Below, piece after piece: positions 10,567 to 64,000 of a stretch of DNA of 64,000 bases (position 1 is the stretch's first letter; each line of letters opens with the position of its first letter). A model generated the notes under the pieces. The model had not been told where the DNA came from, did no database searches, and was given only the letters and a program-made list of their open reading frames with translations. The stretch covers positions 712,627 through 776,626 of the forward strand of contig OZ246394.1 of NCBI GenBank assembly GCA_965230895.1, given 5' to 3'. The translations under genes were made by a program, and so were the position numbers. The DNA is from an uncultured Gammaproteobacteria bacterium. GTDB lineage: Bacteria; Patescibacteriota; Microgenomatia; Levybacterales; UBA12049.

Positions 10567-11268
10567 ATGCAGATAAAAGTTCTTTCCTGGAATATTTGGT
10601 TTGGGAAGCACTCTCACGATATAGTGAAACATCTTCAAAATGCAGAAGCTGACGTCATTTGCCTTCAAGAAGTAATTCAAGAATTAGATGGCAAACATAA
10701 CACAGCAGAAAATATTGCAAAAGAATTGGGATATCATTGGAAATATGAAGAAACGATCCAAATGCCGTATGAAGGGAGAATTATTAGTTGGGGCAATGCG
10801 ATTCTTAGTAAATATAAACTCATATCAACAAACCTTTACGAATTATCTTCTGGAGAGAAAAGGAGAACTGCACTTCAAGCAATGATCGAGATCGACGGAA
10901 AAGAAATTTCAGTCACATCAACGCATTTAGTACATACGCATCAGGAAACTTCAGAACTTCAAGAATCTCAAGCGAAAAAGCTTTTTGAAATCATTCCTCA
11001 GAAATATGCAATTGTTGCAGGAGACTTCAATGCATTACCGGATAGTAACGCAATCCAATATATGTCTGAACATTTACAAAATACGGATGCGCAACTTGAT
11101 CCATCTTGGAGTGTCTATGTTGAAGGATGCGATGTCTGCAAGGTAGATCAGCTTATGCATCGATTAGATTATATCTTTACTACGAAAGAGTTTACTGTCC
11201 ATTCTTTCCAAACAGATTATTCCAAAGGTTCTGATCACTTACCAATAGCTGTTTCACTGGAAGTTTGA
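10567..11268 (+). CDS. Endonuclease/exonuclease/phosphatase (EEP) family protein
   Basis: An N-terminal 'LSWNIW' motif, a 'GDFNALPDS' motif and a C-terminal 'GSDHLPIAV' motif are the EEP catalytic motifs. Confidence 0.7.
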   Translation: MQIKVLSWNIWFGKHSHDIVKHLQNAEADVICLQEVIQELDGKHNTAENIAKELGYHWKYEETIQMPYEGRIISWGNAILSKYKLISTNLYELSSGEKRRTALQAMIEIDGKEISVTSTHLVHTHQETSELQESQAKKLFEIIPQKYAIVAGDFNALPDSNAIQYMSEHLQNTDAQLDPSWSVYVEGCDVCKVDQLMHRLDYIFTTKEFTVHSFQTDYSKGSDHLPIAVSLEV

Positions 11269-16468: not shown

Positions 16469-17570
16469 GTTGTACTACCTCAATTATTTTTTCTGCAGCG
16501 TCTTTGTTGATTAACTCTCGCGTGACCATAGCATGACCTTTGTATGTTTCAAGATTCATTATCATTTCATTGACTTTTTCTGCAAATAATTCAGGAGTTA
16601 AATTATCTTGATCGTACGTCTCGCCCAAACCAGTACTTTGGACAAATTCAGCATTTGTTTGTTGTTCATTCCGTTGACCATATGGTAATGGTATAAGCAA
16701 GCAAGGTTTTCCAAGATATAAAATTTCACTTACGGTACTGATGCCAGAGCGAGAAATGATCAGATCAGCATTGAGCATAACTGAAACAACTTGATTTGCT
16801 GGAATAAATTTTGTTACTTCATAACGCTTTTGCAAATGTTCAGGCAATTTTAATTTCCGATCAACCAATCTGTCATAATCTCCAAACTCTTGTGCATTCC
16901 CTGTTTGATGGATGATCAAATATTTATCCAAAAGTTTCTCAAGCGCACCTTCAACTAAAAGATTAATGCCATGTGCACCACCGCTGCCTCCTGTTATATA
17001 CAAGAGTGGTACCTTACCGTTTGAACGACGTTCTGAGTCATCAGCGTGCGCGAAGAATTCTTTGCGTAAAGGATTACCAGTCAAAACCAATTTATCATGA
17101 GGGAAAAACTGCTCAGAATATTTCCAAGAAATACAGATTTTATTTGCGAACTTGCTAGCTAATTTATTTGCCAACCCTGCTTGCAAAGTCTGTTCATGAA
17201 CTACAAGAGGAATTCTCTTTGCTTTTGCTGCAAGAGCAATTGGAACTGCTACGTAACCACCAAATGATAGAACAACGTCTGGCTTAAAATCATTAAGGAT
17301 TTGCGTCGCTTGCTTTAATCCACCGGGAATCTTAAGGAGAGAACTAAATGTATGAGCAGAAACCTTTCGCTGTAGCCGTCCGGTATTCAACGGAATAAAC
17401 GGCAAACCCATTTTCTGCGCGGTTTGGTATTCAAATGATAAAGCATCATCACCTTCAAATGCATGTTTTCGACCGACGAGGAGATAATCCCATTCTTTAG
17501 GAAGTTTATCAATAACAGCGAGCGCAGGTGCAAAATGCCCACCTCCACCAGCCACGATAAGAAGTTTCAT
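16446..17570 (-). CDS. murG: Undecaprenyl-PP-MurNAc-pentapeptide UDP-GlcNAc transferase MurG
   Basis: The N-terminal G-rich loop 'AGGGGHFAPALAV' is present. A GT28 C-terminal domain reads 'ITGGSGGAHGIN'. Confidence 0.8.
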   Translation of the reverse strand: MKLLIVAGGGGHFAPALAVIDKLPKEWDYLLVGRKHAFEGDDALSFEYQTAQKMGLPFIPLNTGRLQRKVSAHTFSSLLKIPGGLKQATQILNDFKPDVVLSFGGYVAVPIALAAKAKRIPLVVHEQTLQAGLANKLASKFANKICISWKYSEQFFPHDKLVLTGNPLRKEFFAHADDSERRSNGKVPLLYITGGSGGAHGINLLVEGALEKLLDKYLIIHQTGNAQEFGDYDRLVDRKLKLPEHLQKRYEVTKFIPANQVVSVMLNADLIISRSGISTVSEILYLGKPCLLIPLPYGQRNEQQTNAEFVQSTGLGETYDQDNLTPELFAEKVNEMIMNLETYKGHAMVTRELINKDAAEKIIEVVQHEKDKHN

Positions 17571-18295
17571 GTAATAAGTATATCATTCTGAAGCCAGTTC
17601 AGCATAATACGAGTAAATTCTGCTTTTTGTTTTACTGTTTTCAAACTATGCTCTGCACTTTGTATCACTTCATAAGAAAGATTCTTTTTATTTGAAACTG
17701 CGTTCATATAGTTTTCCATTGTCTGATGAGGACAGATGACATCCAGTTCAGATTCAATGATCAGGACTTTTCCGGCAAAATCATGTATTGCACGCAATGA
17801 TTGTGTATCTTTCCATGATAATTTTTCTTTTCGCCATGCTGTCGTTTTGGCATTGGCATACTTTACTTGAGGAAGATTAAAGCCTTCATCAGGATATTGT
17901 GCAGGAACTCGAAGAGCTAACCACGAAACATCTCTGCGCGATGTGAGAATCGTTGCAAGATACGATCCAAAGCTTGAACCAATGACGCCAATTTTTGTTG
18001 CATCAATATCCTTTTGGGAAGCCAATAAATCATACGCTGCTTCCATATCGTCCATATAATCCTCCCGCGACAATTTCCCTCTTTCTCCTTCACTTGAACC
18101 ATGACTTCGCAAGTCAAACGTCATAACAATAAACCCGAGCTTTATTAAAGCTTGCGCAAATATAATGTTCCCTTTTTGACTACTCATCCATCCATGAACC
18201 ATCAAAATTGCAGGATTTTTATCTTTATGACTTTGCGGATATTGGATCGTAGCCGATAGCTTTTGGCTATCAACAGAAAACGTTATTTCCTTCAT
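17567..18295 (-). CDS. Alpha/beta-hydrolase fold protein
   Basis: 'ILMVHGW' begins the fold, with the nucleophile elbow 'GSSFGS' (GxSxG) and a C-terminal His. Confidence 0.6.
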   Translation of the reverse strand: MKEITFSVDSQKLSATIQYPQSHKDKNPAILMVHGWMSSQKGNIIFAQALIKLGFIVMTFDLRSHGSSEGERGKLSREDYMDDMEAAYDLLASQKDIDATKIGVIGSSFGSYLATILTSRRDVSWLALRVPAQYPDEGFNLPQVKYANAKTTAWRKEKLSWKDTQSLRAIHDFAGKVLIIESELDVICPHQTMENYMNAVSNKKNLSYEVIQSAEHSLKTVKQKAEFTRIMLNWLQNDILIT

Positions 18296-19432: not shown

Positions 19433-20437
19433 CTAAACTAATGCAATGAATATACCAAGTATCGCCAAGAGGAATCCAAGTAACCATGCACGCATTACAA
19501 TTTTTGGTTCTTCCCAACCCTTTTTAAGGAAATATAAATGCAAAGGAGCAACAGGAAGAAGCTTGCGACCAAGATATTTTTTCCCAAGCAATTGAATAAG
19601 AGACGAAGCGATTTCGATAACAAAGATTCCTCCGATAATCATAAGTGCAAATACTTTACCGGTCAGAAGTCCAGTTACCGCAAGCGCTGCACCTAACGAA
19701 AGCGATCCAACATCTCCCAGCCAAATACGTGCTTTGTAAATATTGAAGTATAAAAAGGCAGAAACACTCCCAATTAAAATTGCTAGAAAGATTCCGAGAG
19801 GTTGATCAAGTGTTACAGAATTAATTGCTAAGAATGCAAGCAAACAAATAATGAGTAACCCAGATGCTAAACCATCTAACCCATCAGTAATGTTAAATGC
19901 GTTAACAAAAGAGACAATGATAAATGCGGCAAAAGGAATAAAGAACATACCAAGGAACATTTGTCCTACTCCGTGGATAAAGATAAAGTTATATCCTAAC
20001 TGGAAATAAAAGACCCATGCAATAATAAGCGCAAGAATCCACTGAATAATAAATTTGTGTCTAAAACGAAGTCCGAAGAACTTTTCTTTCCCCGGAACCA
20101 TTTTCTTCAGATCGTCATAGAATCCAAGGATACCAAAGCTGACAAATGAGAAGAGGATCACAAAGACTTCCCAAGGATTACTCTTAATATTGAATATACC
20201 GTATGCCCACAAAGACCAGATCAGAACGACAACAATAATAAGAAGTCCGCCGCCGTATGGAGTTCCTGCTTTCCATGAATTAAATTTATCAAAAAGAGGT
20301 GTACGATTATCAAACATGTCTTTTGTAACCTGCTTTTGTCGACGAAGTTTGATCCGGTAGAGGAAGTCGATAAACGGCACAAGCAAGATTGCCGTGACGA
20401 AAGCAGACGATAGCATAAGCCCTAATAGTCGTATCAT
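19433..20437 (-). CDS. mraY: Phospho-N-acetylmuramoyl-pentapeptide transferase MraY
   Basis: 'KAGTPYGGG', 'NAFNITDGLDGLA' and 'DVGSLSLGAALA' are the MraY cytoplasmic-loop motifs. 10 TM helices. Confidence 0.85.
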   Translation of the reverse strand: MIRLLGLMLSSAFVTAILLVPFIDFLYRIKLRRQKQVTKDMFDNRTPLFDKFNSWKAGTPYGGGLLIIVVVLIWSLWAYGIFNIKSNPWEVFVILFSFVSFGILGFYDDLKKMVPGKEKFFGLRFRHKFIIQWILALIIAWVFYFQLGYNFIFIHGVGQMFLGMFFIPFAAFIIVSFVNAFNITDGLDGLASGLLIICLLAFLAINSVTLDQPLGIFLAILIGSVSAFLYFNIYKARIWLGDVGSLSLGAALAVTGLLTGKVFALMIIGGIFVIEIASSLIQLLGKKYLGRKLLPVAPLHLYFLKKGWEEPKIVMRAWLLGFLLAILGIFIALV

Positions 20438-33212: not shown

Positions 33213-34880
33213 GTGAAAGAAGGTTGCTCGCGTTCTACTGTCGCTCAAAGATCATCTGAAGGTCGTCCACTCCTACCTCTTTCTGTGGTAAAAAACACCC
33301 GAGAAGTTACGTATACTCCTGAAACAATCCAAGAAGAATGCGGTATTGTAAGTTTTTATAATCCCAACGGCATTAAGCCCGGGGACATGCAAGACATGTT
33401 CACACAATCAATGCAAGGCGTTAAACACCGCGGCCCCCAAGGGGCCGGTTTCGTATTAAGGACTACTGAGGGGCGCATCAGTCGTTTTACTGGCGCAGGC
33501 AAGCTTGAAGAATCAATTCCTCAACGTAAACTCACCGATGAAATCAATGAAGACAAGGTTACTTGGATGATGGGACATACCAGATATGGGACGACTGGTG
33601 GATATGCGAAAGAGAATATTCAACCTTGTATTGCGGAAGCACCCGATGGCTCCCAAATTTACGTTGCACATAACGGGAACTTCTCTGCCACTGAAAAAAT
33701 GAAGACAATACTTGGGAAAGAATACCCTGAAGATGTCAGCGATACCTATTTGTTCACGCAAGTGCTTGCACAAATGGAGGGCGATTCATGGGATGAGAAA
33801 ATTGCAAAAACAATGGCTGCGATTCCAGGAGCAGCAAGCGTTCTTATAGGGATTGGAGACAAACTCTATGCAGCACGCGATAAGAAAGGAATGCGCCCCT
33901 TTGTCGTGGGGAAGAAAGACAACACATGGATGACTGCATCAGAGACACTTGCTTTTGATAAGGCCGGTGCTGAAGTTCACAGAGAAATTTTACCTGGTGA
34001 AATAGTGCGATTTGATGATGATGGAGTAACCATAGTTCAAGCTGGAGATAAGGACCGACAAAGAGAATGTGCTTGGGAAGGAGTCTATTTTATGCGCGGA
34101 GAATCACTGAGTAATCCTTCGTCAGAAGACTTACCTCCCACAGAATGGGTTGAGAACAATGTATTGCGTAGACAAATAGGGGTACAGCTTGCAGAAGAAG
34201 AAAAGGCACGAGAAGAGCATCGTGCCCATTCTGAAGGATCTTCATACAAGCCTTTTAAACCAGACTTTGTAGTAGGTATTCCTCAGTCGGGAATTCCTTT
34301 TGGAGAAGGGTATGCTGAAGGGATGGATGTTCCATATCTTCGTCTTATAGAAAAAGCTTCCCAAGAGAGACAATTCCTCGATCAAGATGTTGCCGGAATT
34401 CAAGGAAAAGTGGCAGATAATTTATTAATAAAAGATACAGAATTTTGGCAAGGAAAAACTGTCGTTTTAGTAGATGATTCTATAGTAAGAGGTAGTGTGT
34501 CTAAAGGCTTAACAGAAGTATTGCAAGAACTTGGAGCAGAGGTACATTGGCGATCAGGATTACCAATGATTATGGATACCTGTCATTTGGGCGTCAGCAT
34601 ACGAGAGGAAAAAGAATTAATTGCAGCTCGAAATCATGGAGACGAATCAGCGATTGCAGAGGAAATTGGCGCAGCAAGTGTTCATTACATAACTGATGAA
34701 GGATTTAATAAAGGCCGTCGTGGAGAGCTTTTCGTAGCACCACAATCAGGCGGAGATGTCTACAAAGCAAACGGTTTATGTGGTGGATGTTTTACTTCAG
34801 GAGAGAGTGATTACGCATATAATCGAGAAGCCTCAGGAGCCACCGATATTTTCCAAAGCTTTAGGCCACAAGCTTCGTAG
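33213..34880 (+). CDS. purF: Amidophosphoribosyltransferase-like protein (PurF family: Ntn glutamine amidotransferase plus PRTase domain). The ORF uses a GTG start.
   Basis: The nucleophile context 'EECGIVSFY' is followed by 'HRGPQGAGFV', 'GHTRYGTTGG' and 'VAHNGN'. The PRTase motif is 'VVLVDDSIVRGS'. Cys residues sit at positions equivalent to the B. subtilis PurF 4Fe-4S ligands ('ECAWEGVYF', 'CGGCFTSGE'). Confidence 0.7.
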   Translation: MKEGCSRSTVAQRSSEGRPLLPLSVVKNTREVTYTPETIQEECGIVSFYNPNGIKPGDMQDMFTQSMQGVKHRGPQGAGFVLRTTEGRISRFTGAGKLEESIPQRKLTDEINEDKVTWMMGHTRYGTTGGYAKENIQPCIAEAPDGSQIYVAHNGNFSATEKMKTILGKEYPEDVSDTYLFTQVLAQMEGDSWDEKIAKTMAAIPGAASVLIGIGDKLYAARDKKGMRPFVVGKKDNTWMTASETLAFDKAGAEVHREILPGEIVRFDDDGVTIVQAGDKDRQRECAWEGVYFMRGESLSNPSSEDLPPTEWVENNVLRRQIGVQLAEEEKAREEHRAHSEGSSYKPFKPDFVVGIPQSGIPFGEGYAEGMDVPYLRLIEKASQERQFLDQDVAGIQGKVADNLLIKDTEFWQGKTVVLVDDSIVRGSVSKGLTEVLQELGAEVHWRSGLPMIMDTCHLGVSIREEKELIAARNHGDESAIAEEIGAASVHYITDEGFNKGRRGELFVAPQSGGDVYKANGLCGGCFTSGESDYAYNREASGATDIFQSFRPQAS

Positions 34881-36276
34881 CGAAATATTCTTTTAATTCA
34901 GCAATCTTTACTCGCTCTTGTTTCATTGAGTCTCTGTCACGAACAGTAACTGCATCATCTTCAAGAGTTTCAAAGTCAACGGTCACGCACCATGGTGTCC
35001 CGATCTCATCCTGTGCGAGATATCTTTTACCAATATTTCCTCGTGCATCCCAAATAGTCATAAAGTCATTACTTAAGTCTTCAAACAAACCTTGTGCTTT
35101 CTTCACCAATTCTTCTTTGTTTGCAAGAAGTGGGAATACTGCAACTTTGTAAGGAGCGATCTTTGGATCAATCTTAAGGACAGTTCTATTGTCTTCCTCT
35201 GTATACGCATCAGCCAAAACCATAAGCATCAAACGATTTACACCAACAGCTGGTTCAATAACATGTGGAATGATCTTTTTTCCTGTTTGCGGATCAACAA
35301 CTGACAAATCTTTCTTAGCATAATTAATGTGTTGTGTTAAATCGTAATCTGTTCGATATGCAAGTCCCCATAATTCCTTCATTCCAAAAGGGAAATTATA
35401 TTCAAGATCTTCAGTTCGTTTACTGTAAAATGAACGTTCTTCATCACTATGGAGTCTCCATCGAAGATTTTCTTCTTTAATACCTAATTGCTTAGTAACG
35501 AAATCATTCATGCGCTTTTTCCATTCTTCGTACAATGGCTCCCACTCTGTTTCTTCTGGATCGAAGAAGTACTCAATTTCCGCTTGATCGAATTCAATTG
35601 TACGGAAGATAGAATTACCAGGAGTAATTTCGTTACGAAATGATTTACCTTGTTGAGCAATTCCAAAAGGCAATTTCACACGATTTGACGCCAAAACATT
35701 TTTAAAGTTTGTGAAGATTAATTGTGCGGTTTCTCCTCTGAGATATCCACTTCCTTCTGATCCCTCTACGATCCCTAATTGCACTGGGAAAAGTTGATTG
35801 AATTTACGTACTGCAGTCCAATCATGAGCACCGCATTTCGGACAAGGAATCTTTTCCATTTTAATAATGTTCTCGAGCTCTTTGGTACTTAATCCTTCAA
35901 CTTTTCTTTCATCACCTTTTGCTTCAAAGTAGTCTTCAATAATATGATCTGCACGATATCGACTTTTGCAGTTTTTACAATCTACCATCGCATCAGCAAA
36001 ACCAGCCACATGACCTGATGCTTCCCAAATCTTATGATGAGAAATAATACTTCCATCAAGACCTACCATATCAGGACGCTTTTGAACAAAATATCTCCAC
36101 CAGAGATTTTTTATATTGCGGAGTAATTCGGTACCGACTGGACCATAATCATATGTGTTTGCAAGCCCGCCATAGATTTCAGATCCAGGATAAATAAATC
36201 CTCGACGCTTTGCGAGGGAAACGATTTTTTCCATTTTTGCGGGATCAACTGTAGTTTTTGTTTCTTTATCAGCCAT
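34861..36276 (-). CDS. glyQS: Glycyl-tRNA synthetase, alpha2 (archaeal/eukaryote-like) type
   Basis: 'KRRGFIYPGSEIYGGLANTYDYGPVG' is the GlyRS start. A class II motif 2 'FRNEITPGNSIFR' and the ~470 aa length fit the single-chain glyQS form. Confidence 0.8.
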   Translation of the reverse strand: MADKETKTTVDPAKMEKIVSLAKRRGFIYPGSEIYGGLANTYDYGPVGTELLRNIKNLWWRYFVQKRPDMVGLDGSIISHHKIWEASGHVAGFADAMVDCKNCKSRYRADHIIEDYFEAKGDERKVEGLSTKELENIIKMEKIPCPKCGAHDWTAVRKFNQLFPVQLGIVEGSEGSGYLRGETAQLIFTNFKNVLASNRVKLPFGIAQQGKSFRNEITPGNSIFRTIEFDQAEIEYFFDPEETEWEPLYEEWKKRMNDFVTKQLGIKEENLRWRLHSDEERSFYSKRTEDLEYNFPFGMKELWGLAYRTDYDLTQHINYAKKDLSVVDPQTGKKIIPHVIEPAVGVNRLMLMVLADAYTEEDNRTVLKIDPKIAPYKVAVFPLLANKEELVKKAQGLFEDLSNDFMTIWDARGNIGKRYLAQDEIGTPWCVTVDFETLEDDAVTVRDRDSMKQERVKIAELKEYFATKLVA

Positions 36277-49183: not shown

Positions 49184-49777
49184 TTAGCGAAACCACGCAG
49201 CACGTCCTAACTTATAATGCAGATCCTTTGATTTGCGCTCTCCTATCACCTTTGCAGGGATACCACCAACTATAGCATATGGCTCAACAGATTTGGTTAC
49301 GACAGCACCAGCACCGACAACACTACCTTTACCCAAAGTTACTCCAGGAAGAATAATTGCCCGTGGGCCGATAAACACGTAATCATCAATCACAACACAT
49401 TCAGAAATAGCATGGAAATCATCGCTATGGATATCGTGTTGGCTATTGTAGATCATAACTTCTGAAGCAATATCTACATGATCACCAATAACAAGCTTCT
49501 CACGTCCATCCAAAACAGCAAATTCACCGATAATTGTATCTTTACCGATAACAATATTGGCAGGATTATAAAACCGAGCACCTACATGAAGTGTTGATCC
49601 ATCACGAATAGTCATACCTGCAAGTCGATAAAAGAATCTTCGAATATGATGGGACGGTAGATGCCCAACGACATGAAGCACCCAAACGACGAATTCACGA
49701 AAAACGGTATTGGATCTATTCTGCGCCTTCCGTTTAAAGTCTTTTGAAAACATATTTCTATTTAAACTATTTGCCAT
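49184..49777 (-). CDS. Hexapeptide-repeat (LbH) O-acetyltransferase, paralog of the gene at 452..991. The likely start is the internal ATG at MANSLNR, which avoids overlap with the upstream GT4.
   Basis: 'IVIGKDTIIGEFAVLDG' and 'IILPGVTLGKGSVVGAGAVVTKSVEPYAIVGGIPAKVI' align block-for-block with the 452..991 product. Confidence 0.7.
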   Translation of the reverse strand: MANSLNRNMFSKDFKRKAQNRSNTVFREFVVWVLHVVGHLPSHHIRRFFYRLAGMTIRDGSTLHVGARFYNPANIVIGKDTIIGEFAVLDGREKLVIGDHVDIASEVMIYNSQHDIHSDDFHAISECVVIDDYVFIGPRAIILPGVTLGKGSVVGAGAVVTKSVEPYAIVGGIPAKVIGERKSKDLHYKLGRAAWFR

Positions 49778-49778
49778 A

Positions 49779-50927
49779 TTATTTTGCTGCAACGTCGACA
49801 AGTACTTTGAGTGTCTCCTTTGCTGTTTTTTCCCAATTAAACTTCGTTGCCTGTTTTTTTCCTTTTTCACTCAGCTCTTTTCGCAGATTTTTATCATTTA
49901 CTACTTTCACGAGCTTATCTGAGATATCAGAGACATCTTCAGGATCTATATAAACTGCAGCATCTCCTCCTGCTTCCGGCATACTACTTACATTGCTTGT
50001 AATAACTGGCGTGCCCTGCTTCATGGCTTCAACTACAGGCAAACCAAAGCCTTCATAAAGGCTTGGTAAGACATAACAAAGAGTATGTTTATACAGCATA
50101 TGCAATTCGTCATCATTGATACCTTCAAGAAATGCAACTTTATTTTCAACTCCAAACTTCCTTGGTGCATTAAGTATATCTTCATACAACCAGCCTTTCT
50201 TCCCAACAACAACGAGCTGTAAATCTCTGTATGCTTCATCTAATTTTTTGCTTTCCAATGCTTGTGCAAATGCTTCTATAAGGCGGGAAATATTTTTTCG
50301 AGGCTGCAAAGTACCCACAAATAAAACGTAGTTATTACTGAGGTTATATTTAGCTTTTAACTCGTTCATAGCATAAACATGAGGCTGAAGTGAAACAGAT
50401 TGTTTTATCCCAGGATAAATTGTTTTGACCTTTCCCTCAGGTACTTTGTACGTTTTAATTATATCATTTCTACTTGAGTTACTTATAGTCAATACGACCT
50501 TTGCCTTCTCCACAGAATACTTCGTCCAATTACGAAGTTGATACATATCAGCCTTATTAAATAACTCTGGAAAGCGCAAATATGCTAGATCCATTATAGA
50601 AACTACTGTCGGAATAGGCGAAAAACGTGGAGCATAATGGGTTGGGCTAAAGAAAACATCTGGTTTTGACTTACTCAAAAATAAATTAAGGGGCAAACCA
50701 AATTGTGTCCAAAACTTTCCAGGACCGACAATTTTATATTGCCAATTTACGTTTTCCTTTGGAAGTGTCTTTAAAGGTGGTTGTTTAAGATAAATAACAA
50801 ATTTTACCTCAAGTGATTTATTCGATTCAGCAAATTTTGCAAAATAATATAATAACCAATAAGCGTACTCACTTATTCCTACCCTTTTTGTAACATTGGC
50901 TTCATTGCCATCGATTCCAATAATCAT
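49779..50927 (-). CDS. Glycosyltransferase family 4 (GT-B)
   Basis: 'MIIGIDGNEAN' is the N-terminus. The C-terminal 'PSLYEGFGLPVVEAMKQGTPVITS' motif is GT4-like. Confidence 0.7.
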   Translation of the reverse strand: MIIGIDGNEANVTKRVGISEYAYWLLYYFAKFAESNKSLEVKFVIYLKQPPLKTLPKENVNWQYKIVGPGKFWTQFGLPLNLFLSKSKPDVFFSPTHYAPRFSPIPTVVSIMDLAYLRFPELFNKADMYQLRNWTKYSVEKAKVVLTISNSSRNDIIKTYKVPEGKVKTIYPGIKQSVSLQPHVYAMNELKAKYNLSNNYVLFVGTLQPRKNISRLIEAFAQALESKKLDEAYRDLQLVVVGKKGWLYEDILNAPRKFGVENKVAFLEGINDDELHMLYKHTLCYVLPSLYEGFGLPVVEAMKQGTPVITSNVSSMPEAGGDAAVYIDPEDVSDISDKLVKVVNDKNLRKELSEKGKKQATKFNWEKTAKETLKVLVDVAAK

Positions 50928-50929
50928 AA

Positions 50930-51472
50930 TTAATTCCCCGGATATGTAACGTGCAAACGATTTTCTTCAATTCCTAATATATTCATTGCATCTTTCTTGG
51001 TTGCTTCAGAAATACAAAGGATCGCATCGGATTCTTTCTTCACCCAAGCAAGTTTTCTTTTTTGTGTTGCTATAATTTTTTTATCAGTTTCTTCAGGAAA
51101 CTTATAAATAATTAAATCATATAAAATAGTAATTTTTTTCGCTTTTTTAACTGGAGGTTCTGTCCAGTCAGAAGTAATAAAAACATCTACATCTCCTATT
51201 AGATTTTCGATTGGCATGATATGCAATTTATTCCAGAGCATGTCTAATAAGGTTGGTGGAAATTTAAAAGATTTAACGTGTACATTTGAAGATTGAGGCA
51301 AATTCAAATTTGGGACTTTTCCACGTAAACTCGAAAAGAACAAAACATATTCATTTTTATTATCTTGAAGGAGCAATTGCGTAAGTGTCTGTTTAAGATA
51401 ATTTGCCACACCAGTACGACTGTAGGCCATTTGTGAGATATCAATTCCAATCTTCATAGGAGTTCCTAGCAA
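50930..51472 (-). pseudogene. Truncated GT4 glycosyltransferase comprising the N-terminal Rossmann domain only (180 aa). Probable gene remnant or pseudogene.
   Basis: 'MKIGIDISQMAYSRTGVANY...LCISEATKKD...HVTYPGN*' is the donor-less N-terminal half of a GT4. It stops right after the interdomain 'YPG' motif, and the next full-length GT4 starts 3 nt downstream. Confidence 0.4.
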
Positions 51473-51510
51473 ATTTTATTGTAGCATAAAGGCTTTTGTT
51501 ATAGCTCAGA

Positions 51511-51723
51511 TTATGATTTTTTCAGATGTAAAAGTATAATCCCTAAAAGGATAAATCCAGCAGCATACATAACTAACCTCTCCGCTGTAAAAAATATCTG
51601 TAATTGAAAAAGCGGTATTGATAAACAAAAAGAGATTACTCCTACAACAATAGCCCACTTTGGATTTCTTCTCCAAATCAGAGCAATGATAACAATTATA
51701 AATAGAATATCTTGTGGTTTCAT
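51511..51723 (-). CDS. Small two-TM membrane protein
   Basis: A 70 aa protein with two hydrophobic helices. Confidence 0.3.
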   Translation of the reverse strand: MKPQDILFIIVIIALIWRRNPKWAIVVGVISFCLSIPLFQLQIFFTAERLVMYAAGFILLGIILLHLKKS

Positions 51724-52553
51724 TTTTTCTTAATAAAAATAATAATTATTATTATCAAAATTGAAAAGATAATACTCGTTATTACTCCTCTATCAACCCA
51801 TTCTTGTGGAGTATATTGAACAGTGAATGTATAGGTTCCATCTTGTGGCAAGATAAAACTGTTTAATCGGTTGTATTGTTTGCTTGAAATACTATCTGAG
51901 CCGACTTTCGCTGCCCACTTCGCATCATATCCTTCAGAAAATATAAGCTGGTCTCCTTTGCGCGCATTCTTTACGTATACCTCATAATGTACAGGAGACA
52001 CATAAGTATATGTTACTTCAAGATTTTTACTTGTTGTCCAGAAGTGATCTTTAGGATTATTGAGTTCATAAACAACTATCTTCCCATACGTTTTTACCCT
52101 CTTTAACCATTTGATCCTGTCAATAGTTGCTACTACTGAGAGATATTGTTTCTCATCATATTGCCTGTCAGTGTTGAAGATCTGCTTTTCAGAATCAAAT
52201 GGAACAATAACATATTTAACACTTGCTTCACTGAGGAATTTTTCGGTATCCTTTCTTTCTAAGTATTTAAGAACTGCATCTTGATTAGGAGCATTAAATA
52301 ATTCTTGTGCAGAGATAGAACGATGCTTCTCAGACATATAGACGTAATGTGGCGATGCTGGAATCCATAAAACCCGGTAAAATGCATTTTGTCTTGAGAG
52401 AAAATCTTTAAGCTCGACGTATTCGTTTGGCAATTGAGAATTTCTAAGTGTTCCAGTAAACTCTCCGGTAAAAGCAGGTTTTAATAGGAATACAAAATAC
52501 AGAAAGACTCCCAACAAAAACAGCCATGGCAAAAGTTTATTTAGTATTTTCAT
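51720..52553 (-). CDS. C-terminal (periplasmic domain plus C-terminal TM) part of a split member of the large membrane-protein family (see 56013..58184)
   Basis: 'KIVVYELNNP...EVTYTYVSPVHYEVYVKNARKGDQLIFSEGYDAKWAAKVG...SKQYNRLNSFILPQDG' aligns with 'ISDKNAEITYEKVSPARYTVDVKH...QIIFDNPYSEKWEMYLG' of 56013..58184 and with the C-terminus of 58181..60328. Confidence 0.5.
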   Translation of the reverse strand: MKILNKLLPWLFLLGVFLYFVFLLKPAFTGEFTGTLRNSQLPNEYVELKDFLSRQNAFYRVLWIPASPHYVYMSEKHRSISAQELFNAPNQDAVLKYLERKDTEKFLSEASVKYVIVPFDSEKQIFNTDRQYDEKQYLSVVATIDRIKWLKRVKTYGKIVVYELNNPKDHFWTTSKNLEVTYTYVSPVHYEVYVKNARKGDQLIFSEGYDAKWAAKVGSDSISSKQYNRLNSFILPQDGTYTFTVQYTPQEWVDRGVITSIIFSILIIIIIIFIKKK

Positions 52554-53760
52554 ATTTCTTCTTATTTAAAACTATATAAATTTTTTCAATAGCGTATGGA
52601 ATAAGAACTGAATAAGCAAGTGCTATTAAGATATACCATTTCGAAGGATCCCGGAAAGCATTAAATCCTGGTAGATTATTAAATAACCATAGGTAGACAT
52701 CTCCAAATGGATCGTTAGCACCCTTTGCGAGGAATGCTCCTAAAATTCCTACTAGTGCAAAATAAAGAATGTACTTTTTTCGCGCTTTATCTTTGCTGTC
52801 GATAAAAAGCATTGAAGAATATGCTAAGAGTGGTAGAACCAAAAATTCCGGTTTCATAAATCCTACTTTCCCAAAAATATTATCCGGCCAATTAGGATGC
52901 AATAAAGAAATTGTATTCTCGAATTTTGCAAAACTCAAAAATTTAACGCTTTCATTCCCTATTACATAACCACCATCTAATTGAGAGACAGATCCACCGC
53001 CTGCAAAGAATGCTGGCATTGTCCAAAATGCCAAAATGATAGCAGTAGACAAAAATGGAATTATACATGTAAAAAGGATAAGCAAAAGAAACTTTTTGAA
53101 AACAAACCCAGAGATAATTTCGTGCACAAAGGGCAAATAAATGATAACAGCTACGAGCGCAACATATCCCACACGAATATCCAAGCTCATTTGCAAGCTT
53201 AAACATACTCCAGCAATTAAAGAAGGGCTCAATATTTCTTTTATTCTTATCTTTTTTGATGATAATAAACTTATTTGATTAATAGTCGATAGAAAGAAAT
53301 ATACAACTATTGGCGTGATTGCATATGCTAGAGCAAAATGAACCTGACCACCTGATACAATCATCAAAATATAGGAATTAATTGTATAAATGAAACTTGC
53401 TAATAAAGCGAAAGATTTTGATACAAGTGTTTTCTGTGCAAAAAACCAAGCAGAAACAAAAGAAAGGATAAGAAATGGAAAATAGAAAACAACTTTATCT
53501 ACGAGATCCCAACTTAAGCCAAATATATTTCCAATCCCCATCGCAACGCCATTACTCGCATATCCCCAAAGTAATGGAATGAACGTACCGCCAAGCCCTG
53601 AATCTCGCATAGTACTCCAAGCGTATGGATAGACTGAATATAAACTATACGATTCTTTAAAATAAAACAGAGAATCATAACCTGCGAGAAAACCTGGAAC
53701 GAACCAATTGTGGGTTACAAACAAAGTAATAAATAAAACAGGTAAAGCAATAAAAATCAT
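52537..53760 (-). CDS. N-terminal polytopic (about 11 TM) part of the split large membrane protein
   Basis: A 407 aa hydrophobic protein. Its stop overlaps the start of 51720..52553 by 17 nt in another frame. Confidence 0.45.
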   Translation of the reverse strand: MIFIALPVLFITLFVTHNWFVPGFLAGYDSLFYFKESYSLYSVYPYAWSTMRDSGLGGTFIPLLWGYASNGVAMGIGNIFGLSWDLVDKVVFYFPFLILSFVSAWFFAQKTLVSKSFALLASFIYTINSYILMIVSGGQVHFALAYAITPIVVYFFLSTINQISLLSSKKIRIKEILSPSLIAGVCLSLQMSLDIRVGYVALVAVIIYLPFVHEIISGFVFKKFLLLILFTCIIPFLSTAIILAFWTMPAFFAGGGSVSQLDGGYVIGNESVKFLSFAKFENTISLLHPNWPDNIFGKVGFMKPEFLVLPLLAYSSMLFIDSKDKARKKYILYFALVGILGAFLAKGANDPFGDVYLWLFNNLPGFNAFRDPSKWYILIALAYSVLIPYAIEKIYIVLNKKKYENTK

Positions 53761-54878: not shown

Positions 54879-56032
54879 AGTTCTCCCAATGCTTTGGTAA
54901 GGACATTATCCCATTCAAATTCTTGAGCATATTTAATTGCATTTTCTCTCATACTTTTATATTTCTTTTTATCTTTCATAATTAGAATTGTTGCATCAGC
55001 AAATGCTTGTTTATCATATGCTGATACCAAACCACAATTTCTCTTCGTTAACTCTTCAGATATCTGTGTCAAGGAAGTTGTAATGACTGGTAATCCTGTA
55101 GCAATATATGTTTTCACTTTGGAGGGATCAGCATAATAGGACCATCTTGCAAGTTCTTCACTATACATTGCAGCTGCGACACCACAGGATGCCAATATTT
55201 CTTCCACATCTTCATGCTTTTCCATATATCCCAAAAAATCAACGTACTTATCTATTTTTAATTTTTTTGATTGTTTTTTGAGTTCACCTTCGTATGAACC
55301 CATCCCAATAATTTTAAATGTGAAGTCAGGAATTTGTTTAACAATGAGTGGAATAGCATCTAAAACAAGTTGTATACCTTGATGAGGAGCCAACCCTCCT
55401 GCATAAACAAGTGTATGAGGATTTACTTCCTTAAACTCCTTTCGCTTAATTCGATTAAACCAGATACCTATAGGAACGATTAGTTGCCTATTAAAAATTT
55501 TTCTGTTCATCCCAAGCAGTTGTTCTCTTCCTTCTGCAACACGGTCGGTTAATATCCAGGTTGCATCTGCATAACGAACAGCAAATTTTTCAAGGCTATG
55601 ATAGATCGAATTAAGTAATTGATTATCAAAGCGTTTCGGTACAAAGTCGATCGTATAATATATAACTTTTTTCAACTTCCCTAATGTTCTTAAGATAAGT
55701 CCTGTGAATGTATTAAGATTATCGAGTGAAATTATGAGATCCCAAGTTCCACCCGCTTTAAAGACCCAATAGATAGAGAGTAAAACGTCTTTTATATATT
55801 GAATAATACTTGGTAATTGTATGTTTTTATATTGTATCTGTTTGACCAGTGTTCCTTTTTCATAAAGCTCAAAAACCGGTCCTGGACGATCTTTAACAAA
55901 AAAAAGTGGATGCCCCATATACAAAAGTCTTTTTACTTTCTTTTTCAGGAAATACTCTTTTAGATCCTGCGCAGGAACAGTCGTTAAAACATGCGCTAAA
56001 ATTATTATTTCTTTATTTTTTATATCTTGCAT
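54875..56032 (-). CDS. Glycosyltransferase, GT-B (GT4-like)
   Basis: A C-terminal domain 'YAGGLAPHQGIQLVLDA...KVKTYIATGLPVITTS' has GT4-like topology. Confidence 0.55.
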   Translation of the reverse strand: MQDIKNKEIIILAHVLTTVPAQDLKEYFLKKKVKRLLYMGHPLFFVKDRPGPVFELYEKGTLVKQIQYKNIQLPSIIQYIKDVLLSIYWVFKAGGTWDLIISLDNLNTFTGLILRTLGKLKKVIYYTIDFVPKRFDNQLLNSIYHSLEKFAVRYADATWILTDRVAEGREQLLGMNRKIFNRQLIVPIGIWFNRIKRKEFKEVNPHTLVYAGGLAPHQGIQLVLDAIPLIVKQIPDFTFKIIGMGSYEGELKKQSKKLKIDKYVDFLGYMEKHEDVEEILASCGVAAAMYSEELARWSYYADPSKVKTYIATGLPVITTSLTQISEELTKRNCGLVSAYDKQAFADATILIMKDKKKYKSMRENAIKYAQEFEWDNVLTKALGEL

Positions 56033-58184
56033 AGAATAAATGTATTATAAAGTATAAGGTTATTACAGCAAATGTAAATAAACTTATTATATCTCCAAAT
56101 GCGAAAACGGCCTGAGGAGCAAAGAATATTGTCGCAGTAAAGCTTACACTTTTATCAGAGTTTATAGTTATTTGGTTTGGATATTCTTTTTTTAGTTTAT
56201 CTACATCAATTACCCAAGCATTGAGATATTCATTATATCGCATATGAGTTTTTAAGATATCCTTATTCAAGAAAAATTGTGTCTCATGTAGATTTCTTGT
56301 ATCCCCTAAATACATTTCCCACTTCTCAGAATATGGATTATCAAAAATGATTTGAGATTTTTGAGAAACATGCTTTACATCAACAGTATATCTTGCTGGT
56401 GATACCTTTTCATAAGTGATCTCTGCATTTTTATCAGAAATACTTATTAAGGGCTTTTGAACTTTATTGTTTTCTACGACTTTTTTGATTTGATAGACGT
56501 TTATATCTCGAGCTTTATCAGTTGTAGATATATAGCCTGAATCTGGCGTTCCTTGGAGATGTCCAACAAATACCAAGCGATTATCTTTAGCTAATTGAGC
56601 ATTTATTTGGGCTGAATTGTTTTGCAGATTGTTATAGATCATGATTGTATCAATATTATGATCTGTTAAATAATCAATTGTACTTGATTTGGTTATATCA
56701 CTTATCTTTGCATAATGCGCTTGCGCATAAGGATCAAAAGGGCTTGCTCCACATGCAAACGCTTTATTATGAACAATCTGGGCTTTTAATTGATATGTTT
56801 CAGGACATCCAGTGACAACATCATTTTGAGTCATTGGATACGTAGCAATGGCATGAATATCCTCATTATCTTTGATTGATTGATAAAGTTGTACTTCCTT
56901 AGAAAAATTACTCAAGCGCCACCAAGATTGATCAACGTTTAGCGAGTTGCCAACCAAGACAAGCGTTAAGATTGAGAACAGTATAACTTTGTAGTTTTGG
57001 TGTAACTTCCTGTAGTACATGCTTTGCATAAAACCATGAATTGCAAGCCCAAACAATATCCCTAAGAATAAATAGGCCAACAAAACCATACGAGCCACCC
57101 CTCTAAAAATTCCGAAATACTTAAAATAAATTTCATTGATCCAATATGTATAAGGTGAATATGCTGATAAGATAAGTGCACCGAGGAAACAACATAATAT
57201 AGCAACTTGAATACTTGTTCTTCGCAAGAATACAAGCCCACAAAAAACAATTAAAGGTACTATTACATATAAGATATTCCCTATATACGGAATATATGTT
57301 TTTAGCATGCTGTATTCAGGTGGAGAGAAATAATAGAGAATACTGAGTAATTCGTTCTTTGCGATAGAATTTCTACCTGTAGCAACTGCGGCCTCACTAT
57401 TGAATAGGTAGAAGTTTGTCACAAAGAAGTTAAAATTGCATGCAATTAAAACGAGTAATAAAACTGGATAATAGATACATGCGCTTTTTAAACTGGAAAT
57501 TAATGACTCTCTTTTATAAGCAAAAAAGATAAGTGGAGAAAGTAGCCCTGAGAAAAATGCATAATAAGCATCTGTATTAAACAGCAATGCAAAAGTCGCT
57601 GAAGAGAGTAGCAAGCTAAACACTGTCTTTCTATCTAAGAAATATACTAGTGATAAGAAATAAAACGGGATGAGCTCAATATGATTGACTGATAGTTGAG
57701 CTCTTGCCATATGCACATGATAAAAAGAGAAACTAAAAATAATGCCCGCCAAAAAACTTGCTGCTTTATTTTTTGTGAGATAATAACAAAATAAATAAGC
57801 CCCAATTGCTGATAAGGGATATGTAATGAGAGAAGAGATGTTTGTTAAGAGGATTAAGTTATTCCAATTAAAACCGATTATATATTGCATAATAAATGCC
57901 TGAGAGACATAGACCAAATTCCTAAATGGCATAAAAGTTATGTCAAATCCGAAGGGATAAGAGAAAAACTGATTAATGTAGTAAAGATATCCCTCAGATT
58001 GGATATGAATCAAATACCATTGATACCAAAGTCCTCCATCTGCGTCAACGTCCGGCATTCCATAGTAAGTATTTATATGAGGTAGCTTGTTATAAAAGAT
58101 GATAGCAGTTAATGCAGAGTATACAAGAAAGAAAAAGATGATTGTAAAAAGTTGATTATTGAAAAGTCGTTTTATGTGCCTCAT
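56013..58184 (-). CDS. Large (723 aa) polytopic membrane protein with an N-terminal ~12 TM domain, a ~280 aa extracytoplasmic domain and a C-terminal TM anchor. Paralog family, GT-C/YfhO-like architecture.
   Basis: The first loop carries 'GMPDVDADGGLWYQWYL', an acidic D-x-D-x-D motif. It is about 50% identical by eye to 58181..60328 over the TM domain ('NHIELIPFYFLSLVYFLDRK' versus 'NHIEFIPLYFLSLFYFLNRK'). Confidence 0.55.
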   Translation of the reverse strand: MRHIKRLFNNQLFTIIFFFLVYSALTAIIFYNKLPHINTYYGMPDVDADGGLWYQWYLIHIQSEGYLYYINQFFSYPFGFDITFMPFRNLVYVSQAFIMQYIIGFNWNNLILLTNISSLITYPLSAIGAYLFCYYLTKNKAASFLAGIIFSFSFYHVHMARAQLSVNHIELIPFYFLSLVYFLDRKTVFSLLLSSATFALLFNTDAYYAFFSGLLSPLIFFAYKRESLISSLKSACIYYPVLLLVLIACNFNFFVTNFYLFNSEAAVATGRNSIAKNELLSILYYFSPPEYSMLKTYIPYIGNILYVIVPLIVFCGLVFLRRTSIQVAILCCFLGALILSAYSPYTYWINEIYFKYFGIFRGVARMVLLAYLFLGILFGLAIHGFMQSMYYRKLHQNYKVILFSILTLVLVGNSLNVDQSWWRLSNFSKEVQLYQSIKDNEDIHAIATYPMTQNDVVTGCPETYQLKAQIVHNKAFACGASPFDPYAQAHYAKISDITKSSTIDYLTDHNIDTIMIYNNLQNNSAQINAQLAKDNRLVFVGHLQGTPDSGYISTTDKARDINVYQIKKVVENNKVQKPLISISDKNAEITYEKVSPARYTVDVKHVSQKSQIIFDNPYSEKWEMYLGDTRNLHETQFFLNKDILKTHMRYNEYLNAWVIDVDKLKKEYPNQITINSDKSVSFTATIFFAPQAVFAFGDIISLFTFAVITLYFIIHLFYARYKK

Positions 58185-60328
58185 AGAGTATTTTTATTCT
58201 TTAATCTCCAAAAATACATTATAAAGTAAATAGCAAGACATATCAAAACAATATTTCTAATTAACGAGCTAATTTGTATATAGATCGATGGCGTAAATAG
58301 AACCGTAGCTTTTAAGGAGCTATTTGCATCAATATTTTTAATTTTCCAACCATTCGCATAATCATTGATTGTTATATGTTCAGCTTCTAAAGGAGCAATA
58401 CTCGGAATTGCTAGAGTATTAAATGTCATTTGGCTTCCATTGTATATTTGCCACTTATCAGAGAATGGCTGATCAAAGACTATAACTGTTTCTGGGTTGA
58501 TATTTGGAACAAAAATTTCATATTGATATTGAGAAATCTTTTTTGTATAGACGTTACCGTTTTCTATTGTAAAAATATTTTTAGGCGGACGGCTTACTAC
58601 TTCTTTTATCTGATATACAGAAATGTCTCTCGATTTGTTATTGGAAGTAACATAATCACTATCTATTGGTTGAGTGTACCTTCCTACAAACTTTAATCGT
58701 TCATTATTAAGAAGCGTCTTATTAATTTCTAGACTATTAGGCAGTAAATTATTATAAATAATGATTGTGTCTACATTATACTTTACAAGCAGATCTATTG
58801 TGTCTTGACTTGATATATCTTTAATCTTTTTTTGATATTCAATTGATTCTTTGGAGAACGGACTTGCTCCTGTTACGATTTTCTTATTGTGAACTATTTG
58901 TCCAAGTAATTGATAGGTACGCGGATTTCCGTAATCAACAAAATCTAACTCAACAGGATATGGTGCAATAACTTTAATTGAGGAATTTTCTTTTATTGGT
59001 TCATAAAGTTTTGCTATCTTGGAAAAATCAGAATACATCTTCCAACTTGCATCATGATTTAACCCAATCGCTACTACAAAAAATGCTAATAACAAACTTA
59101 TCAATATCTTCTTCTTGCCTGCAATCTGAGTTATTAATACCCCTATCATTAATCCTTGGAATAGATAGACCACATGGTACATTCTTGCAACACTTCTAAA
59201 CATTCCAAAGTAATGAAAATACAACTGGTTCAGCCAATAGAATAATGGCGTATATGCTGATAATATAACAGCTATCAAAGCACAGAAGAATAAAGTTTTA
59301 TATACCCTATTTTTAAATTGGAAGAATAAACCAATAATTAGGATTATTGGAATCAGTGCACCAAAGTAAGAAAACGATTTATTAAATAAGTAAATGATGA
59401 TGCTTGTTTCAGGAAGACTAAAATAAAAGCTTAATGGTAATAACTCATTTCTATAATTAGTGACCCGACCCGATTGGACTAAGTATTGATGGTCAAAAAG
59501 TAATATATTGGAAATTATGAAATTTAAGTTAAGTAAAACGAGCAAGACAAGAAGCGCTCCATAATAGACTCCAATAGTTCTTATCTTTGATAAAATACTC
59601 TCCTTTTGATAAAAAAGAACAATAACTATAGATATGAGACCACAGAAAAATGCGTAATAAGCATCTGCATTAAAGGTAATACTAAATACAAATGCAGAAA
59701 GAACTAAAGAGACTATGCTTTTCCTATTAAGGAAGTAAAACAGACTTAAAAAGTATAACGGTATAAACTCAATGTGGTTAATGGACATTTGCCCTCTCCC
59801 TGCCAAAACGAAGCTAAAAGAAAAAGCATAAATAAGCCCGCAAACGAAACTGCCCATATAACTTCTTGTGAGGTAAAAACATAAACATGCAGCACTTATT
59901 GCAGCTAATGGGTAGACCAGTAACGAAGAAATATTAGTTATTAAAATAAGATTTTGCCATGAGAAACCAAACATTTTTAGCAGGGCAATGTGTACTGAAT
60001 AAATCAATGTTTCAAAGGGTTTAAATGTAATATCAAATCCAAATGGAAAACCAATGTAATCAGTAATTTCATAAAGCTCCTTTTTCTGTTCAAGAAAAAC
60101 AAGGAACCATTGATACCAAAGTCCTCCATCAGTATCAATATCTGGCATTGCATAACGAGTATCTAGGAAGGGCAAACGATGGTGGAATATTAGGAGAGTA
60201 AGAATAAGATAGATAAGAAATCCTATTATCGATACACTAACAAATTGCTGGACTTTATTTTGTCCATCTATAACGTTAGTAATCTTTTTCAAAAAACTAC
60301 TTTTCTGTTGATATCGATTTTGATTCAT
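58181..60328 (-). CDS. Large (715 aa) polytopic membrane protein, tandem paralog of 56013..58184
   Basis: It carries 'AMPDIDTDGGLWYQWFL' and has the same domain order. The C-terminal exported domain is homologous ('ISVYQIKEVV...YEIFVPN...FDQPFSDKWQIYNG'). Confidence 0.55.
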   Translation of the reverse strand: MNQNRYQQKSSFLKKITNVIDGQNKVQQFVSVSIIGFLIYLILTLLIFHHRLPFLDTRYAMPDIDTDGGLWYQWFLVFLEQKKELYEITDYIGFPFGFDITFKPFETLIYSVHIALLKMFGFSWQNLILITNISSLLVYPLAAISAACLCFYLTRSYMGSFVCGLIYAFSFSFVLAGRGQMSINHIEFIPLYFLSLFYFLNRKSIVSLVLSAFVFSITFNADAYYAFFCGLISIVIVLFYQKESILSKIRTIGVYYGALLVLLVLLNLNFIISNILLFDHQYLVQSGRVTNYRNELLPLSFYFSLPETSIIIYLFNKSFSYFGALIPIILIIGLFFQFKNRVYKTLFFCALIAVILSAYTPLFYWLNQLYFHYFGMFRSVARMYHVVYLFQGLMIGVLITQIAGKKKILISLLLAFFVVAIGLNHDASWKMYSDFSKIAKLYEPIKENSSIKVIAPYPVELDFVDYGNPRTYQLLGQIVHNKKIVTGASPFSKESIEYQKKIKDISSQDTIDLLVKYNVDTIIIYNNLLPNSLEINKTLLNNERLKFVGRYTQPIDSDYVTSNNKSRDISVYQIKEVVSRPPKNIFTIENGNVYTKKISQYQYEIFVPNINPETVIVFDQPFSDKWQIYNGSQMTFNTLAIPSIAPLEAEHITINDYANGWKIKNIDANSSLKATVLFTPSIYIQISSLIRNIVLICLAIYFIMYFWRLKNKNTL

Positions 60329-63244: not shown

Positions 63245-64000
63245 TTATTTAGTTACCGTATTCACAATAATTTCACTTGGACGCTGTTTGGGATTAATCG
63301 GTTTTTTTGCATATTTTTTATAATTCTTAAAAAAATCTTTTATTACATCAAAATTATTCTTACTAAGAACTACATTATGATTTAAGCCCTCAATACGCTC
63401 AGTTGCTGAACGAAGAATAAGACATGGTTTACCAAAATAATATGATTCTTCCTGATTACTTCCTCCATCCGTTACAATAAATTGACATCCATCAATTACT
63501 TTCATAAATTCCACGTAACTCAATCTTTCGCTAAGAATAATATTTTTATGTGCTTTAAGCTTTTGCATTAATCCTTTCTTTTCTAAGACAAGTATCGTAG
63601 GAGCGTGCATTACAAAAACACATTTCATATTCTTCGCGTGTGCAATAACATTATCAATCAACAATTCAACGAGTTGATCATTAAACAGGTTCTCCTGACG
63701 ATGCATAATAAAAAGGAAATATTTTTCTTTCTTAATACGATCCAACAGTTTTGATTGAACTTTTGTATTTATGACCATATTTAGACTATCCAATAAGGTA
63801 TTCTGGCCCGTATTAACTTTTAACCCGCTCTTATTCTTAAGATTATTAACAGCCCATTCATTAGGACATAGGTGAATATCTGTTAATTGAGAAGTAATAA
63901 CCCTGTCAATCTCTTCTGGAAAAGGATGGAAATAGTTAAATGATCGCAAACCAGCCTCAACATGAGCTATCTTTAAACCATACCGCTTCGCGATAAGTGC
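63245..64000 (-). CDS. wecB: UDP-N-acetylglucosamine 2-epimerase (WecB/MnaA family), partial. The N-terminus lies beyond the window end, and the ORF-track start at 63949 is internal.
   Basis: Manual translation upstream of 63949 continues in frame as '...ALIAKRYGLKIAHVEAGLRSFNYFHPFPEEIDR'. The HVEAGLRS/PFPEE motifs and the C-terminal 'FIVTDGGSNQEESYYFGKPCLILRSATER' define non-hydrolysing 2-epimerases. Confidence 0.7.
   Translation of the reverse strand, partial: ALIAKRYGLKIAHVEAGLRSFNYFHPFPEEIDRVITSQLTDIHLCPNEWAVNNLKNKSGLKVNTGQNTLLDSLNMVINTKVQSKLLDRIKKEKYFLFIMHRQENLFNDQLVELLIDNVIAHAKNMKCVFVMHAPTILVLEKKGLMQKLKAHKNIILSERLSYVEFMKVIDGCQFIVTDGGSNQEESYYFGKPCLILRSATERIEGLNHNVVLSKNNFDVIKDFFKNYKKYAKKPINPKQRPSEIIVNTVTK

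Follow-up and report, generated by a model that had tools for sequence, protein, structure and literature searches.

In the 64,000 nucleotides (nt) examined here (assembly GCA_965230895.1, contig OZ246394.1, positions 712,627 to 776,626, referred to below as the window), two overlapping open reading frames (ORFs) lie head to tail in a long minus-strand operon of a Levybacteria-like bacterium (Patescibacteria), an operon devoted to surface-glycan biosynthesis. Read one after the other, the two make up a polytopic membrane protein, of which the upstream ORF supplies the N-terminal part (N-part) and the downstream ORF the C-terminal part (C-part). The genes and their junction are laid out as follows.

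52537..53760, minus strand: N-part gene, 407 amino acids (aa), ATG start, from the ORF list
51720..52553, minus strand: C-part gene, 277 aa, ATG start, from the ORF list
52537..52553, minus strand: overlap of the N-part and C-part genes, 17 nt, out of frame, ATGAAAATACTAAATAA, from the sequence
52548..52557, minus strand: frame-switch interval, 10 nt, AAATATGAAA, bounded by conserved anchors

In the following, we argue that the two ORFs are likely to encode a functional two-subunit membrane glycosyltransferase of the GT-C class, as predicted from the evidence below. The split gene is probably neither dead nor switchable, as a cut at the same place is found repeatedly, and is conserved, in other uncultured bacteria.

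The 17-nt overlap had been pointed out in an original prediction made from the letters of the window, and both the ORF coordinates and the sequence confirm it. It contains the ATG of the C-part (52553..52551) as well as the TAA of the N-part (52539..52537), and the C-part ORF is in the +1 frame relative to the N-part ORF. The split amounts to a net frame shift of +1 inside 52548..52557, an interval anchored by a conserved AAG AAG in the N-part frame (frame A) and, after it, a conserved ATA CTA AAT AAA in the C-part frame (frame B); stop codons and homology give a broader bound of 52542..52565. Counted between the conserved motifs WYILIAL and KPAFTGEF, the window has 52 codons and 1 extra nucleotide. 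The exact position of the insertion or deletion (indel) cannot be fixed, the loop being short, of low complexity and variable in length among relatives, and the alignment to two intact paralogs that had been proposed for finding a one-base indel cannot locate it at 15% identity. The longest homopolymer in the frame-switch interval is A4, and no tandem repeat was found there; an A6 run lies upstream of the interval, and stops follow it in the other frame.

An AlphaFold2 model of the joined N-part and C-part sequence, built with 40 relatives, reached a predicted local distance difference test score (pLDDT) of 86.6 and a predicted template modelling score (pTM) of 0.87. It shows about 11 transmembrane (TM) helices followed by a turn of 5 residues (401-405). 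Next come another TM helix (TM12, 406-425), a domain of alpha/beta plus beta-sandwich type (426-651) and, at the C-terminus, a TM anchor. In this model the ORF boundary coincides with the NKKK-rich turn between TM11 and TM12, which should be cytoplasmic according to the positive-inside rule and the exported domain that follows TM12. The N-part comprises the transmembrane GT-C core, about TM1-TM11, with Asp29 in its first external loop, and the C-part starts with MK and continues through the TM12 signal-anchor helix and the exported domain to the C-terminal anchor. The labels "TM bundle" and "exported domain", which had been given to the two halves at the outset, hold in the model.

Two hallmarks of the GT-C superfamily are present in the protein, namely a polytopic membrane core with the GT-C fold and a conserved acidic residue in the first extracytoplasmic loop, the latter being Asp29, which lies between helix 1 and helix 2 and is invariant in 41/41 sequences. 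The motif that the family conserves best is FSFAKFENTISLLHPNWPDNIFGKVGFMKPEF (residues ~275-306 of the joined protein, about 52840..52940 of the window, minus strand). It falls in the one loop that the model predicts with low confidence (residues 263-302) and is reminiscent of EL5, the flexible substrate-engaging external loop of PglB and STT3. With respect to curated families, no Pfam match above the gathering threshold was obtained for either half or for the joined sequence (YfhO PF09586, GT-C_AftD PF11847, PTPS_related PF10131). The weak signals among relatives (E<=0.01) are to YfhO (2/41) and GT-C_AftD (2/41), and a profile search of the PDB gave no match for the family. The family thus is of GT-C architecture but stands outside every curated sequence family. 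It shares fold and architecture with mycobacterial AftD (PDB 6W98/6WBX) and AftA (8IF8) and with the oligosaccharyltransferases STT3/AglB/PglB (6S7T, 3WAJ, 5OGL), but has no significant sequence similarity to them. Furthermore, all of these enzymes are single polypeptides, whereas here the core is encoded by one gene and TM12 with the exported domain by another. The one pointer to a polyprenyl-phosphate-linked sugar donor is the operon context (epimerase, DegT aminotransferase, GNAT, GT2, GT4, Wzy_C, PMT_2).

Over its whole length the joined sequence aligns with hundreds of unsplit proteins, about 650-730 aa long, in metagenome bins of Levybacteria and other Patescibacteria. When the concatenated sequence served as query, fused forms of this kind made up 119 of the best 120 database proteins. 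Likewise, a scan of GTDB genomes with the joined 679-aa sequence, of which the best 80 of 186 loci were kept, gave together with the syntenic loci L004 and L005 a first-pass set of 82 orthologous loci, all of which read through the junction in one frame. The conclusion drawn from this first pass, a unique lineage-specific frameshift in the window, was overturned by a search with the C-part alone. The first census had been biased, since under a full-length query half-length proteins reach only about half the score of fused ones, and best-N cut-offs were used, such that the joined query concealed every two-gene relative. Even the window's own 277-aa protein (P0121), which is in the collection, is missing from the best 120 of the concatenated query. 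Conversely, a word-index search with the C-part alone (603 candidates scored) returned mostly short proteins, and both effects bias a count of fused against split forms.

When the 277-aa C-part by itself was searched against 1.84 billion cluster representatives and the best 150 were classified, 111 proved to be fused, 18 were stand-alone proteins of 265-295 aa, 6 were ambiguous and 15 were fragments. Stand-alone C-parts thus account for about 14% of the classifiable representatives (18 versus 111 fused) among these best 150. All 18 begin with M, mostly as MK or MR, within 6 residues on either side of the window's start and just before TM12. Stand-alone homologues of the N-part, 370-426 aa in length, were found in L086, L092, L093, L095 and L096. 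At least seven further loci carry separate N and C genes that are cut at the same TM11/TM12 turn, with varied junctions.

L086-L089: N 426 aa, C 285 aa; 20-nt overlap, +1 frame; 6 contigs from at least 4 samples
L093/L094: N 412 aa, C 293 aa; 4-nt spacer
L095: N 411 aa, C 285 aa; ATGA overlap
L097 (NCBI GCA_964598355.1): N partial (contig edge), C 295 aa; GTGA overlap
L092: N 370 aa, C 282 aa; ATGA overlap
L096: N 410 aa, C 308 aa as called (true start probably later); 118-aa 23S_rRNA_IVP/bAvd-like gene between the two
L090: N partial (contig edge), C 287 aa; 128-aa 23S_rRNA_IVP-like gene between the two

Genes of the same two parts therefore recur in other lineages at the same cut point, which is what a gene fission should leave behind. 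The family exists in a one-gene form of ~680 aa, which is the majority, and in a two-gene form, whose cut invariably hits the short cytoplasmic turn, rich in lysine, that joins TM11 to TM12. A genuine two-subunit version, which the original prediction had offered as one of its alternatives, is favoured by these at least seven loci, by the ~14% of stand-alone representatives and by purifying selection in a sister pair of split genes (below).

Two further candidates were considered during the census. L098 (P0262) was rejected as another split, since its break is a scaffold gap of Ns, and L091 carries a stand-alone C-part (P0149) on a 1.5-kb contig with an unrelated upstream ORF, such that this locus is uninformative on the N-part. 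The genes that lie exactly between the halves in two of the split loci (L096:3703-4059 and L090:791-1177) resemble 23S_rRNA_IVP/bAvd, and an inserted element of this kind may have caused the fission in the L096/L090 lineage. No reverse transcriptase was seen in the fetched flanks of these two loci; a 93-aa GIY-YIG gene lies nearby in L096. In three split loci that belong to a second group (L092:1-1569, L095:1-2473, L096:1-2070) the N-part is preceded by a gene for a protein of ~1100 aa and then by a gene of ~100 aa. At its C-terminus, the large L092 protein is similar to the C-part domain (29% identity over 76 aa), and the protein has a faint GT-C_AftD signal. As judged from its sequence, this longer paralog appears to share the exported domain.

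The split relatives L086 and L093 are 67% identical, and the tails of their N-parts can still be aligned (KK.EK.S.*). Between them, the ratio of nonsynonymous to synonymous divergence (dN/dS) is 0.21/1.27 (~0.16) for the N-part and 0.30/1.25 (~0.24) for the C-part, values that are rough since dS exceeds 1 and is near saturation. Both halves are clearly constrained between L086 and L093, and as a second split pair, L095/L096, also groups together, the two-gene form is evolutionarily stable. Purifying selection on both parts after the split is thus seen in L086/L093, and what the window itself displays is an absence of decay. It retains 51/52 family-invariant residues (36/37 in the N-part, 15/15 in the C-part) and, among residues conserved at 90% or more, 73/80 in the N-part and 47/53 in the C-part, which equals the intact P0003. 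Its ratio of C-part to N-part identity ranks 20 of 41, i.e., mid-range. Neither relaxed constraint nor further lesions, either of which would mark a pseudogene, were found, and the same disruption is conserved in split relatives.

The sequence itself appears to be reliable. Three independent Logan single-run assemblies (SRR14271353, SRR14271365 and SRR14271366) are 100% identical to the window DNA over 2.7-7.2 kb, junction included, and the exact 407-aa and 277-aa products are found in these assemblies and in the 1.61-Mb NCBI contig. The original prediction had held that a pseudogene or a phase-variable gene would be the wrong explanation if read data supported the sequence uniformly and orthologs elsewhere were also two genes. 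This is essentially what was found, with the Logan assemblies taken in place of raw reads.

A neighbour-joining tree of the N+C sequences, bootstrapped, places the window in a clade with P0002, P0003, L086 and L093 (100% bootstrap), within which L086 and L093 form one group (100%) and the window, P0002 and P0003 another (99%); the second split pair, L095 and L096, has 81% support. This tree recovers split sister pairs. A neighbour-joining tree of the C-part alone was not relied on, because it contains one representative per 50% cluster, is built on a short alignment and carries no support values; in it, every split form is a singleton, implying 19 independent changes. For the window, it is equally parsimonious that the split goes back to the common ancestor of the five clade members, the line of P0002/P0003 having re-fused, or that it had a second origin in the window's own line. 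The geometry of the junction leans towards shared ancestry with L086. Both loci have exactly 10 nt between the frame-A AAGAAG and the frame-B AT(A/T)CTAAATAAA and the same frame relation, their C-parts start with MKILNK in the window and MKNILNK in L086, and their N-parts end in ..TK* and ..SK*, respectively, at the same TAA. The fused relative L005 runs through the corresponding interval in one frame.

How might such a two-gene enzyme work? The N-part, with TM1-11, the invariant Asp29 and the conserved external-loop motif, would be the catalytic core. The C-part would insert into the membrane by means of its own N-terminal signal-anchor helix, TM12, and would provide an exported substrate-binding or acceptor domain in trans, packing against the core in the membrane. 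Its translation could proceed by coupling or re-initiation at the ATG within the 17-nt overlap, which would hold the two subunits near 1:1. The overlap is a likely site of translational coupling. Same-strand gene overlaps of 4-32 nt are common in the window, those of 17-32 nt are also found elsewhere in it, and at another junction of the operon a 20-nt overlap is kept in the relatives L004 and L005. In this context, we noted that a TATAAT-like hexamer ends 7-9 nt before the ATG of many window genes that have no Shine-Dalgarno motif (e.g., upstream of 17567..18295, 10567..11268, 19433..20437 and 34861..36276), which suggests that leaderless mRNAs or mRNAs with very short leaders are frequent in this organism.

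The junction could also be read as a recent loss-of-function frameshift, in which a formerly fused gene gained 1 nt or lost 2 nt and became a young pseudogene, its C-part made poorly or not at all, with too little time elapsed for further decay. Several points weigh against a functional two-subunit enzyme, and most of them speak for this explanation. The closest relatives of the window, P0002 (680 aa) and P0003 (670 aa), are syntenic, 51-53% identical to it and fused in a single ORF, and they are the ones that group with it at 99% bootstrap; an out-of-frame overlap is what a frameshift classically leaves behind; and the genome has two other, remote GT-C paralogs where relatives have one. That the window's line underwent a frameshift of its own, possibly a recent one, is as parsimonious as the inheritance of an ancestral split. 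Since all assemblies are identical, the age of the event cannot be judged, and the 90% clusters of both window halves have one member each, leaving no close relative by which to date it. Neighbour-joining is a simple method, and the dN/dS estimates are subject to the saturation mentioned. Finally, no Shine-Dalgarno motif or promoter is recognisable before the start of the C-part, although the missing Shine-Dalgarno motif is uninformative, because such motifs are generally missing from this genome. We nevertheless regard a young pseudogene as rather unlikely. At least seven other loci and 18 cluster representatives are cut at this turn, and one split pair is under purifying selection; the junction geometry equals that of L086, which is itself split; divergence is not excessive in either half; and the rest of the operon is intact. 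Moreover, a random frameshift is rarely so clean. When single-base insertions were simulated at every position, 11-17% gave two ORFs with a loss of no more than 3 native residues, and ~5% gave a cut this clean that avoided helices and strands. Of the protein, 3% consists of short inter-helix turns, and ~6% of homopolymer runs are at or adjoining such turns.

Three other explanations of the junction were weighed, and pseudogene, phase variation and assembly artefact alike are poorly supported because the assemblies are identical, a repeat tract is missing and neither half has decayed. If ribosomes shifted +1 at ACU AAA UAA A, a full-length fused protein could be made alone or beside the two products. 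The stretch bearing this candidate site is ACUAAAUAAACU. There, frame A ends in AAA-UAA-A and the +1 frame runs into the C-part, and the N-part of L086 likewise ends in UCU AAA UAA A. Formally, AAA-UAA-A is the +1 frameshift motif of Euplotes (PMC5011710). However, AAA-TAA ends 7/49 ORFs of the window and is thus ordinary here, the motif is accounted for by the conserved Leu-Asn-Lys coding in frame B, no RNA structure is predicted near the junction (z = +0.37), and there is no upstream Shine-Dalgarno-like stimulator. We know of no bacterial precedent for a +1 shift at this site. Furthermore, the ATGA overlaps, spacers and inserted gene at other split loci could not be bridged by a frameshift, and we consider recoding very unlikely. 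A related and quite speculative idea is that in the window and L086, which share CU-AAA-UAA-A, some ribosomes shift +1 as in Euplotes and thereby yield separate subunits as well as a fused enzyme in a ratio set by termination efficiency, and that, more broadly, single-nucleotide indels in the lysine-rich turn may toggle the family reversibly between its one-gene and two-gene forms. A contingency gene that slippage in a repeat tract turns on and off, as had been suggested at the outset together with a pseudogene, might draw on the A-rich loop and on the fact that the family alternates between fused and split forms over evolutionary time. Yet a long homopolymer or tandem repeat with length heterogeneity would be expected at the switch, and the interval has no run beyond A4 and no repeat, the upstream A6 leads into other-frame stops, and the three assemblies are identical, which makes phase variation extremely improbable. 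The same can be said of a sequencing or assembly error in the source genome. A-rich sequence of low complexity is error-prone on some platforms, but identical DNA (2.7-7.2 kb) and products in three Logan assemblies and the NCBI contig leave next to no room for it.

It is useful to compare the predicted two-subunit enzyme with other membrane proteins that come in pieces. SecD and SecF exist fused or separate, and LacY has been split experimentally. Natural fission of polytopic membrane proteins is known but uncommon, Split-Doa10 being an example (PMC3464245). As in these systems, the cut described here lies in an inter-TM loop, the fragments are expected to re-associate, and fused and split forms coexist among relatives. 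In contrast to them, fission in this family recurs at one turn with several types of junction, and where the junction is an out-of-frame overlap a single indel could re-fuse the genes. Among the GT-C enzymes, oligosaccharyltransferases, ArnT and the mycobacterial arabinosyltransferases have been studied as single polypeptides, and a targeted literature search found no description of a split GT-C enzyme. If our interpretation is correct, the enzyme can be delivered as two subunits, one of them the catalytic membrane core and the other the last TM helix with the exported domain, and the TM11/TM12 turn is a natural domain boundary that should be useful for engineering and structural work. The family would then illustrate cleanly that the gene of a polytopic membrane protein can split repeatedly and possibly fuse again, an evolutionarily neat case with relevance to annotation rather than a new mechanism. 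For annotation, it would mean that such gene pairs in Patescibacteria should not automatically be called frameshifted pseudogenes. A lesson on method is that a query joining two halves ranks fused proteins above half-length ones.

The split pair is embedded in the operon as follows, in operon order, together with the coordinates of two neighbouring features.

First part, minus strand: UDP-GlcNAc 2-epimerase-like, GNAT, DegT aminotransferase, GT2, 715-aa and 723-aa membrane proteins
Middle, minus strand: GT1, 371-aa membrane protein, split pair, 70-aa membrane protein
End, minus strand: half-GT4, GT4, hexapeptide acetyltransferase, 1012-aa Wzy_C protein, PMT_2 protein
51511..51723, minus strand: 70-aa small membrane-protein gene, 4-nt overlap with the end of the C-part gene
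56013..60328, minus strand: two tandem remote paralogs, 723 aa (56013..58184) and 715 aa (58181..60328), a single ORF each

The 70-aa gene has counterparts at the same position in L004 (73 aa), L005 (71 aa) and L098 (69 aa) and marks a conserved operon context. The remaining genes of the operon have lengths equal to those of their orthologues. A second frameshift in the operon, in the epimerase gene at 63245.., was considered and rejected, the ORF running off the end of the window.

The 723-aa and 715-aa proteins, which are 40% identical to each other, are the two intact paralogs of which the split pair had been called a third. They share the overall architecture and full-length profile homology with the split gene: a profile-profile comparison gave 98.8% probability (E=1e-16) over 599 columns at 15% identity. 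The alignment passes straight through the junction, which bears out the earlier statement that the equivalent position is continuous in the intact copies. The word paralog, however, was too strong in that the relationship is a remote one at ~15% identity. By BLASTP, the N-part had no match to these two proteins, and the C-part matched them in its last ~100 residues (E=5e-7). They have a weak PTPS_related (PF10131) signal. They differ from the split gene in being single ORFs, and the low identity places them in a different subfamily. The syntenic relatives L004 and L005 have one such GT-C-like gene each (708 and 725 aa, sharing 62% and 60% identity with the 723-aa copy, respectively); the 715-aa gene is thus an extra divergent copy.

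Downstream of the split pair, a 180-aa ORF (50930..51472, minus strand) consists of an N-terminal Glyco_transf_4 domain alone and lies directly upstream of a full GT4 gene (49779..50927, minus strand). The same pair of half-GT4 and GT4 is found in L005 (178 + 378 aa), L093 (176 + 375 aa), L092, L096 and L097, such that the half-GT4 is a conserved stand-alone gene and not a fragment. In L005, two genes separate the 71-aa gene from the half-GT4, namely a GT2 gene (315 aa) and one of 298 aa (L005:10241-12111), both of which are missing from the window (51472..51511); a GT2 gene near that position is also present in L093, L086, L092, L096 and L097. Finally, the hexapeptide acetyltransferase ORF (49184..49870, minus strand; GTG start, 228 aa) overlaps the upstream GT4 gene by 92 nt. 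Gene calls on identical Logan contigs give this protein 183 or 197 aa, and its true start probably lies further downstream.

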